Positions 1,558 to 4,903 of a DNA stretch of 64,000 nucleotides are shown one piece after another; the first letter of the stretch is position 1; every line of letters starts with the position of its first letter. Origin of the DNA: Escherichia phage vB_EcoM_NBG2; the sequence record NC_054925.1. One strand, given 5' to 3'. The notes under the pieces are model-generated. The model searched no databases. It was not told the origin of the DNA and worked only from the letters and a program-made list of their open reading frames with translations. The translations under genes were made by a program, and so were the position numbers.

Positions 1558-1836
1558 TCAAAATGTAATTTCTAACCAATCACCATCACGCTGATCACTA
1601 TTGACTTTAAAGCTGAATCCTTCTTTTCTCAGCCAATCACCAATTTCTTCAGTAATCAATTTATCACGAGCAGTACAATAATAACTAAAATGTGTTTTAC
1701 CTTGTTCAGCTGCTTTATTAGCAAGTTCCGAAAAATCTTTAATAAAACACTCTAGCTTAAACTGTTTACTTTTGAATGCTTTTTCGCGTAATTGATTAGC
1801 AAAAGATTCATTTTCATAAAGATCATACTGTTCCAT
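1558..1836 (-). CDS. hypothetical protein (T4 24.2 position)
   Basis: 92-aa ORF co-oriented with rnlB. Confidence 0.55.
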   Translation of the reverse strand: MEQYDLYENESFANQLREKAFKSKQFKLECFIKDFSELANKAAEQGKTHFSYYCTARDKLITEEIGDWLRKEGFSFKVNSDQRDGDWLEITF

Positions 1837-2038
1837 TTTTCACCTTTTTATTGATATGTCTTTTTCTATAGACAACTTTTTCTCGAGTTTCAAATTTATT
1901 CTTAGCAGTCATAGCTCGAGCCCATAATACAGCCACCTCTTTTGCCTGTAAGTTCAATTCACGAGCAATTTCAATGAATGACTTTCCAGACTCATGGAGA
2001 GTAAACACCACAACCTCAGTTCTCATAATCAATCTCAT
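1823..2038 (-). CDS. hypothetical small protein, HTH-like segment (T4 24.3 position)
   Basis: 71-aa ORF; SGKSFIEIARELNLQAKEV resembles a helix-turn-helix. Confidence 0.5.
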   Translation of the reverse strand: MRLIMRTEVVVFTLHESGKSFIEIARELNLQAKEVAVLWARAMTAKNKFETREKVVYRKRHINKKVKNGTV

Positions 2039-2095: not shown

Positions 2096-2121
2096 AAAAT
2101 GAAGAAAGGGGCCGAAGCCCC
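2096..2121 (-). terminator. rho-independent terminator downstream of hoc
   Basis: ggggccgaagcccc hairpin followed by U-rich tract on the minus-strand transcript. Confidence 0.6.
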
Positions 2122-2127
2122 TTATGA

Positions 2128-3546
2128 TTATGGATAGGTATAGATGATACCAGTTTCTAAAGCAGTTTTATGAATGATGTATCCATTACGCGATTCTTGG
2201 ACATCAACTTCTGGATAGTCTTTAATCATCTTCTGAAGAGTGTAACGATGCAGGTAGTATTTACTATCTGGGTCGTCAGTTTTCCAATCTTTACCTTCTT
2301 CGGTCATTTTTTGGATTTCATCCATAACCCACCAACCGCACCAGATATAAGCTGAAGTACGATGTGGAAGAGGATGAACATAAGGTAGTTCACCTTCTGG
2401 TTCCGGAGCAACTTTATCAGTCACTTGAACTTGACCTGTGGCTTTAACTGTTTTACTATCATAGTCAGTTGCTGTAACGACAGCAGTAACTTCAATAGTT
2501 TGACTTCCAATAGATGAGGTATCAACAGTATATACGTTAGTTGACCCTTCCACAGGAGAAGAATCTTTCTTCCATGAGTAAGTAATTTGTGCTGCTTCAG
2601 GTGCGCCATTAACATTAGCAGTAAATGTAGCCGAAGCATCTTGCTGAACATTAATAGAAGGAGGAGTCAATGTAACCTGTGGATTCATTGTCTTCTTATT
2701 AACTGTCAATGATACTTCATTGGAAGTAACTTCCTTTTCATTATAATTTTCTGCAGTTACTTGGGCTACGCATTTAATTCTTTTTACTCCACTTGTAGTT
2801 GGAGTATAGTTAAATGTAGAGTTAGTTTCTCCACCAACTTGTGAATCATCTACATACCACTGATACGTAGCAGACGCTCCGTCAGGTTGAGAAGCTAATG
2901 CAGCAGTAAATTGAACCGGGGTTCCAATTACTCCAGCAGCAGGACTAGCAGGAGTTACTGCCAAGGTAGTTGTCTGTGTCTTTTTATTAACTGTCAATGA
3001 TACTTCATTGGAAGTAACGCTCAGTGCATCATAATCTGTCGCAGTTACTTGAGCTACACACTTAATTTTTTTAACTCCGCTTGTAGTAGGAGTATAATTG
3101 AATGTAGCAGAAGTTGCTTCGCTCACAGGAGAACCGTCAACGTACCATTGATACGTAGCAGATGCGCCCGATGGCTGTGAAGCTAAGGCAGCAGTAAATT
3201 CAACGGCTGTTCCGATTACTCCTTCTGGAGGACTATTAGGAGTTACAGCTAAAGTAGTTGTCTGTGTTTTATTTTGAACTGTAATAGTTGTACTAATTTC
3301 AGCTGTTTCAGCTTCAGAATCAGGAATAGTATTTGTTGCAACTACCTTAATAGTCTTTTGACCAGCAGGTCCTTTTAATACATAATTAAAAGTTGCTTCA
3401 GCTCCATCTTGTGGAACATCATCTACAGTCCAAGCATATGTAATAGGTCCATCTCCAGTTTGACCACTGGGTGTAGCAGTAAACTGCTTAGTTTCATCAA
3501 TAACCCCTGTCGGTGTTTTAGGAGTTATATCAACTGTAAAAGCCAT
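2128..3546 (-). CDS. hoc: highly immunogenic outer capsid protein Hoc, with an extra Ig-like module
   Basis: 472 aa; tandem Ig-like repeats (QTTTLAVTP...YQWYVD...VSLTVNKKT twice); C-terminal capsid-binding tail ...LHRYTLQKM. Confidence 0.9.
   Translation of the reverse strand: MAFTVDITPKTPTGVIDETKQFTATPSGQTGDGPITYAWTVDDVPQDGAEATFNYVLKGPAGQKTIKVVATNTIPDSEAETAEISTTITVQNKTQTTTLAVTPNSPPEGVIGTAVEFTAALASQPSGASATYQWYVDGSPVSEATSATFNYTPTTSGVKKIKCVAQVTATDYDALSVTSNEVSLTVNKKTQTTTLAVTPASPAAGVIGTPVQFTAALASQPDGASATYQWYVDDSQVGGETNSTFNYTPTTSGVKRIKCVAQVTAENYNEKEVTSNEVSLTVNKKTMNPQVTLTPPSINVQQDASATFTANVNGAPEAAQITYSWKKDSSPVEGSTNVYTVDTSSIGSQTIEVTAVVTATDYDSKTVKATGQVQVTDKVAPEPEGELPYVHPLPHRTSAYIWCGWWVMDEIQKMTEEGKDWKTDDPDSKYYLHRYTLQKMIKDYPEVDVQESRNGYIIHKTALETGIIYTYP
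2692..3267. repeat. tandem ~288-bp duplication inside hoc (one Ig-like domain per unit)
   Basis: ttattaactgtcaatgatacttcattggaagtaac recurs at ~2697 and ~2985; encoded 96-aa segments are near-identical. Confidence 0.75.
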
Positions 3547-4285: not shown

Positions 4286-4903
4286 ATGTACCACTTTGTA
4301 TATGAAACAACAAATCTAATAAATGGTAAAAAGTATATAGGAAAGCACTCTACTGATGACTTGAATGATGGTTACCTTGGTTCCGGTAAGGCAATTCAGC
4401 AGGCTATAAAGAAATATGGTGAAAACAATTTCTCTAGAACAATACTAAAAGAGTTTAAAACTTCCGAAGAAGCGTACATGTATGAAGAAGAAATTATAAC
4501 TCCTGAACTAATAAAAAGCAAAAATTATTATAATATGAAACCTGGTGGAATTGGTGGAATTGTTATGACTACAGATGTTATAGCAAAGATGAAAGAATCT
4601 TCCGCTAAAAGATTTGAAAACTCACCGGGCACGGTATTAGGTAAAACTTGTTATACTAATGGAACTAAAAATATTTTTATTAAACCTGGAGAACTTGTTC
4701 CAGAAGGATTTGTAAAAGGGATGGTTCATCCTAATAGAAAGTCCAGAAAAGGATGTAAAGTCAAACCGACTACCACAGGAACTTTTTGGGTCAATAATGG
4801 CACAATAAATAAATTAATACAACCAGACGGTATTATTCCCGACGGATTTATTAAAGGTCGTCTCATGAAAAGAGATTCTAAAGGCAAATTTAGTAAGGCA
4901 TAA
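4286..4903 (+). CDS. segE: GIY-YIG homing endonuclease (Seg family; T4 segE position between inh and uvsW)
   Basis: 205 aa; N-terminal GIY-YIG module (HFVYETTNLINGKKYIGKHS...GYLGSG); opposite strand to hoc/inh. Confidence 0.6.
   Translation: MYHFVYETTNLINGKKYIGKHSTDDLNDGYLGSGKAIQQAIKKYGENNFSRTILKEFKTSEEAYMYEEEIITPELIKSKNYYNMKPGGIGGIVMTTDVIAKMKESSAKRFENSPGTVLGKTCYTNGTKNIFIKPGELVPEGFVKGMVHPNRKSRKGCKVKPTTTGTFWVNNGTINKLIQPDGIIPDGFIKGRLMKRDSKGKFSKA

Follow-up and report, generated by a model that had tools for sequence, protein, structure and literature searches.

The hoc gene of Escherichia phage vB_EcoM_NBG2, which we analysed within a 64,000-nt stretch of record NC_054925.1 (the window), is in our view an ordinary Tequatrovirus allele that carries two old, diverged copies of T4 Hoc domain 2, remodelled by recombination across the genus; we give this reading a probability of about 85%. 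On this account, the module that corresponds to T4 "domain 2" would have been doubled in tandem long ago, producing an alpha unit followed by a beta unit, and the predicted protein would consist of four Ig-like domains, one more than T4 Hoc, strung on a conserved capsid-binding domain. Across the genus the module forms a small array of one to three 288-nt units, in which unequal crossover between units would delete exactly one unit, and patchwise exchange would generate mosaic units, most of all in one hypervariable loop. The extra domain would be likely to make the fibre longer by roughly the length of one Ig domain and may add another domain-2-type surface for binding or antigenicity, distinct from the first and with its own loop, and the diversity may be kept by selection on surface interactions. 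Hoc is a surface protein of T4-like phages with roles in mucus adhesion and immune recognition, and is the main T4 display scaffold for vaccines and vectors.

The gene is hoc and encodes one Ig-like domain more than in T4

Both homology to T4 Hoc and T4 synteny identify the gene as hoc, as the original prediction had proposed. In phmmer, the window protein matched the T4 Hoc PDB chains (5vf3_Z and others) with an E value of 2e-217, residues 189-472 aligning to positions 93-376 of chain 5vf3_Z, and the Pfam families matched were PKD (43.1 bits; cutoff 23.5), Ig_3 and I-set. The gene order, uvsW-segE-inh-hoc-24.3-24.2-rnlB, is that annotated for T4 in NC_000866, with rnlB, 24.2 and 24.3 downstream of hoc and inh, a GIY-YIG endonuclease gene and uvsW upstream. 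Over positions 1-24000 the window shares about 97% identity with several Tequatrovirus genomes, phage P922 being the best overall match for these first 24 kb. The T4 gene (1131 bp) has one unit and encodes 376 aa; the proposal that the window protein, with 472 aa, carries one Ig-like domain more than its T4 counterpart was thus correct. The features of the gene are listed in Table 1.

Table 1. Features of hoc and its 3' boundary, in window coordinates
Feature	Position	Strand	Codons	Description	Basis
hoc	2128-3546	-		1419-nt ORF, 472 aa	ORF list, phmmer, Pfam, synteny
Ig-like domain 1	3265-3546	-	1-94	Orthologous to T4 Hoc domain 1, collinear	
Unit A	2977-3264	-	95-190	"Alpha" Ig-like domain, first copy	Repeat finding, TRF
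Patch of unit A	3016-3048	-		VTATDYDALSV; predicted loop that links the last long strand to the following one	Segment-wise comparison
A/B junction	2950-3015	-		Last 39 nt of A plus first 27 nt of B; parts near-identical between the copies	
Unit B	2689-2976	-	191-286	"Beta" Ig-like domain, second copy	Repeat finding, TRF
Patch of unit B	2728-2760	-		VTAENYNEKEV	Segment-wise comparison
Last Ig-like domain	2401-2688	-	287-382	Orthologous to T4 Hoc domain 3	
C-terminal capsid-binding domain and stop	2128-2400	-	383-472	Homologous to T4 Hoc ~281-376	
Terminator-like hairpin	2106-2123	-		GC-rich hairpin plus T-run just past the hoc stop	Consensus scan

An AlphaFold model of the window Hoc, for which 29 homologues were used as input, contains four confident beta-sandwiches (pLDDT mostly >88) followed by a low-confidence C-terminal domain. 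Domain 1 is a beta-sandwich with a pLDDT of about 82-92, and its divergence from T4 amounts to a dS of 0.23 and a dN of 0.09. Units A and B, both modelled with pLDDT >90, display the same seven-strand pattern (E99-187 and E194-283) offset by 96 residues, and each unit is therefore predicted to be one whole Ig-like domain. The last Ig-like domain, matched by Pfam Ig_3 and I-set at residues 289-374, is collinear with T4 residues 191-286 (dS 0.36). Foldseek matches of the model were multi-Ig ectodomains (Dscam, Sidekick and ICAM, with E values of about 1e-13). The capsid-binding domain has low pLDDT in this model, which was built without the capsid; its dN relative to T4 is 0.009, and it is invariant in an alignment of 29 Hocs. 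Because this domain is near-identical to that of T4, one Hoc copy would be expected to sit centrally on every gp23 hexamer of the mature head.

At the 3' end of the gene, the position corresponding to the terminator-like hairpin is annotated as a terminator in phage vB_EcoM_G2540-3. The plus-strand ORFs within hoc (61-112 aa) were dismissed as mechanical or chance, and so were the promoter-like matches within the gene, of which 9 were found against 7.8 expected by chance. The neighbouring 24.3 homologue (DUF2774; window 1823-2038, minus strand) has 71 aa, and several relatives have 61-71 aa; the T4 annotation of 24.3 gives 56 aa (L001 2733-2903), so that the start site or the length varies among relatives.

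The two units are diverged copies of one module

Two repeat finders, TRF included, returned one array of two in-frame 288-nt units of 96 codons each at positions 2689-3264. The original prediction of two consecutive in-frame units was therefore right, its boundaries (2692-3267) being one codon off. According to TRF, the hoc array is the sole tandem repeat scoring at least 80 in the 64-kb window. In blastn the off-diagonal match between A and B covers 288 nt at 79% identity (E 9e-71), far past chance, and searches of the window with hoc by blastn and tblastn found no copies of the unit beyond A and B. The two-place matches reported in some GenBank records are probably this same A/B self-match.

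The modules had been described as near-identical, and their high nucleotide identity had been taken as a sign of recent duplication. Self-alignment of hoc, chosen beforehand as a check that could overturn this claim, did so: the segments are diverged, with 227 of 288 nt (78.8%) and 76 of 96 aa (79.2%) identical. The overall dS between A and B is 0.71 and omega is 0.2, which indicates purifying selection on both copies. When the unit is divided into parts, no amino-acid changes are seen in the first 27 nt (24/27 nt identical, dS 0.52) or in the last 39 nt (38/39, dS 0.12); the core, nt 27-216, has 143/189 identical nt with a dS of 1.17 and a dN of 0.14, and the intervening patch, nt 216-249, has 22/33 identical nt with a dS of 0.17 and a dN of 0.54, a dN/dS with only about 11 substitutions behind it.

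These values can be set against the divergence between the window phage and T4. The window-T4 dS is 0.25 for the last Ig-like domain and the C-terminal domain taken together and, with domain 1 (0.23), about 0.24 for hoc outside the two units; the dS between A and B (0.71, and in the core 1.17) exceeds this by a factor of three to five. Since the dS between the units lies so far above that between the phages, A and B must have split well before the window phage and T4 did. T4's single unit is 91% identical to B and 81% to A at the nucleotide level, and over its first 216 nt unit B resembles T4's single domain 2 most closely; the two copies in the window are thus not closer to each other (78.8%) than B is to its T4 counterpart (91%).

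The exact 288-nt period, the in-frame unit boundaries and the 38/39 identity of the unit ends are what one would look for if a tandem duplication had occurred recently in the lineage of the window phage, leaving copies that are still nearly identical. We consider this origin very improbable, given the 78.8% identity of the units, a dS about three times the window-T4 divergence and, as described below, the fact that many other phages carry A-type and B-type units in the corresponding places. Even less credit can be given to an assembly artefact, in which a mis-assembled repeat would have created a spurious extra unit. Tandem repeats are a known source of error and some GenBank hoc records are frameshifted, but the 61 differences between A and B make read placement unambiguous, the ORF is intact, and the same structure is present in hundreds of independent genomes and metagenomic contigs.

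Copy number and unit types among relatives

By megablast, 677 of 50,697 phage records matched the window hoc, the best match being vB_EcoM_G2540-3 (98.2%), whose units are identical to those of the window. Frequencies were estimated from an evenly spaced 60-row sample of the 677 ranked GenBank matches, in which 49 rows cover the whole query. The two-unit form, seen as a single-piece match of 1416-1425 bp, accounted for 21 of these 49 full-length records (~43%), and the one-unit T4-like form, seen as a two-piece match spanning 1117-1131 bp, for the other 28. The comparison of Hoc lengths across relatives thus also went against a recent duplication, the same domain count being common.

Some of the matching records are irregular. 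In UPWr_E2 (H28), vB_EcoM-PM107 (H75) and the UFV phages (H51-H55) the two-unit hoc is a 1418-bp match divided among at least two CDS, probably as a result of frameshift sequencing errors or because these are genuine hoc pseudogenes. MG010123.1 (H68), a 32-kb record named "Staphylococcus phage SAJK-IND", contains a 1419-bp hoc that is 91.8% identical to the window's, and looks like a mislabelled fragment of a T4-like coliphage.

An IMG/VR scan returned 21 loci, mostly from other genera and too few for a census of units, and the census was therefore made on 120 listed cluster representatives from a large protein search. Hoc lengths among these were 376 aa (79 proteins), 472 aa (29) and 567-570 aa (9), reflecting one, two or three consecutive 96-aa units at a spacing of always exactly 96 residues, with two exceptions that have a diverged extra domain. 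All 165 units, clustered on their first 72 residues, fell into three types: alpha (like window A), beta (like window B and T4) and gamma (not in the window). Alpha takes first place in 30 of the 32 two-unit proteins and in all 7 with three units; second place is mostly held by beta or gamma, and third place mostly by gamma. Unit A of the window clusters with the position-1 units of the other two- and three-unit Hocs.

The single-unit proteins comprise all three types (beta 47, alpha 24 and gamma 8). Together with the very frequent recombination of T4-like phages on co-infection (PMC9271167), this raises the alternative that the two-unit gene is a fusion of single-unit alpha and beta alleles, brought together from co-infecting phages by unequal recombination, maybe repeatedly; the sequence just upstream of A, which resembles a unit end (the TRF repeat reaches 3282), would offer the short homology for misalignment. 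However, the highly conserved order of the units, with alpha first, better fits an inherited old array, the demonstrable recent event (see below) goes from two units to one, and alpha, beta and gamma share one ancestral unit in any case. We regard a fusion of this kind as unlikely, and retain the old tandem doubling of domain 2 as the better account.

Two sets of more distant sequences were also seen in these searches. In P0045 (567 aa) and P0044 (472 aa) a single canonical alpha unit is accompanied by strongly diverged Ig domains (for example "AVAVTPASPAPVEIGTATTFTANVSNQP..."), which suggests that the array took up domains of another Hoc lineage. Five of the IMG/VR loci (L009, L010, L015, L018 and L019) encode Hoc relatives 35-58% identical to the window protein in other T4-like genomes, with matches of 831-1641 bp; this spread of match lengths indicates that Ig-domain number differs between genera too, there through unrelated or strongly diverged domains.

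A hypervariable loop patch on every unit type

The patches of A and B (Table 1) differ at 11 of 33 nt. In the AlphaFold model the patch loop of unit A sits between strands E157-168 and E175-178. In the window Hoc and the 120 listed cluster representatives, the patch takes at least 18 distinct forms, which are spread over every unit type and position. T4 itself carries an A-type patch on a B-type unit: painting with the window units assigns nt 0-212 to the B type and all 11 informative sites in nt 224-245 to the A type, and none of 200,000 permutations reached a run of A sites of the same length. The order of the segments in this unit fits that of the middle extra unit of an expansion, and patch exchange explains it equally well; with the loop patch polymorphic on every unit type, the T4 unit was rejected as proof of a past triplication.

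Relation to known Hoc proteins

T4 Hoc (NP_049793; PDB 5VF3 and 8T1X) is encoded at the same locus, and its domain 1, last Ig-like domain and capsid-binding domain are collinear with those of the window protein. T4 domain 2 is the same module as window A and B, but T4 has one unit, with a B-type body and an A-type loop patch, where the window has two. Phages G2540-3, PP01, AR1, ime09, G28 and ESh33 have the same 1419-1425-bp two-unit hoc, alpha then beta, those of PP01, AR1, ime09 and G28 being recovered as single-piece matches of this length; these and other two-unit Tequatrovirus Hocs show allelic differences only (in the loop patches, and with a gamma second unit in some). The three-unit Hocs (568-570 aa), found in Escherichia phages UGKSEcP1 and UGKSEcP2 and in metagenomic relatives, share the flanking domains of the window protein, its 96-aa unit and the alpha unit in first place; in contrast to the window, which is without gamma, they have one unit more, usually a gamma third unit. 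Farther away, the Hoc of RB49, the three-domain Hoc of PhiPNJ-9 and the Hoc of Serratia phage Muldoon (10 Ig domains) have kept the C-terminal anchor with a variable number of Ig domains (PMC10385173, PMC11853027). The fibres compared across genera are made of unrelated or strongly diverged domains, whereas the window hoc and its close relatives use copies of one 288-nt unit.

That the number of Ig domains in Hoc is variable is already published: Hoc homologues are strings of 1 to 10 Ig-like domains, these domains vary greatly even among close relatives of T4, and the four-domain T4 Hoc fibre measures 180 Å (PMC10385173). Two-unit hoc genes, moreover, are annotated in hundreds of GenBank records. 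For array polymorphism, the literature that we searched gave only the general statement on variable Ig-domain number among Hoc homologues, and we found in it no description of the 288-nt array, the three unit types, the one-, two- and three-unit polymorphism or the exact contractions. The population-level picture of the array may be undescribed, although a tandem repeat in so recombinogenic a phage would be expected to behave in this way.

A three-domain Hoc variant has been characterised, and its binding to MUC2 was mapped to S183, L184 and T185 in domain 2 (PMC11853027). To judge by their position, these residues may belong to the conserved "VSLTV" strand that is present in both window units; if so, a two-unit Hoc would bear the motif twice.

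Recombination between and within units

One exact contraction involves Shigella phage ESh33, whose hoc has two units that are 76% identical. The single unit of a contig from SRR22802616 matches unit A of ESh33 as far as nt 72-86 and unit B of ESh33 from there on, with 0 mismatches; the crossover falls inside a 14-nt identical block, and the flanks of the gene are identical at 842 of 843 positions. Since the ESh33 units are so diverged, the direction of the change must be from two units to one. Judged from this alignment, the SRR22802616 unit is the product of an unequal homologous recombination that removed exactly 288 nt. In the case of the window allele, the chimeras seen were only related ones, in P922 and T4_ev240. 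The single units of these phages paint as A (5') and then B (3') against the window units, with different breakpoints, and this is the order that would be expected from unequal crossover in a window-like gene.

Consistent with a labile array, unit number varies on identical flanks. In the set of 113 canonically flanked representatives, which includes the window Hoc, the flanks (280 aa) are 100% identical in P0006, with three units, P0036 and P0037, with two, and P0107, with one, and several further pairs with unequal unit number have flanks that are 99.6% identical. Mapped onto a UPGMA tree built from the flanks of these 113 cluster representatives, the unit numbers require 25 or more copy-number changes (Fitch, recombination ignored). 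Part of the copy-number differences on identical flanks could reflect allele replacement between co-infecting phages and not de novo intragenic events.

The repeat had also been proposed as a substrate for recombinational expansion and contraction. Contraction is borne out by the one to three units of the relatives and by the exact crossover product, but for expansion no recent case was seen: none of the 53 within-protein unit pairs exceeds 85% aa identity.

An effect of the extra domain on adhesion or antigenicity, as first suggested, is plausible. We can also envisage, tentatively and with less conviction than the old doubling itself, that the domain-2 array works as a diversity-generating cassette, in which crossover would set the length (1-3 units) and gene conversion would shuffle the hypervariable loop. 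Were this so, phage populations could continually vary the adhesion of their capsids to mucus or cells and escape anti-Hoc antibodies. The window allele itself is common and old and adds nothing new; what modest interest remains concerns domain 2 of hoc, an adhesin module that is naturally mosaic and variable in length. In practice, comparisons of Hoc-dependent phenotypes between therapeutic T4-like phages have to reckon with more than one "Hoc" architecture (the one-, two- and three-unit forms), typing and serology based on Hoc need to take this variation into account, and repeats engineered into hoc may be of doubtful stability.

The presence or absence of segE, at a site some 0.7 kb away from hoc, could affect recombination nearby, and SegE might raise its local rate. 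The window homologue of SegE (4286-4903, plus strand, between inh and uvsW) is a GIY-YIG homing endonuclease identical to T4 SegE at 204 of 205 aa. The gene is present in T4, G2540-3 and P922, and it is absent, with uvsW abutting inh, from T4_ev240, UGKSEcP1, ESh33 and the SRR22802616 contig.
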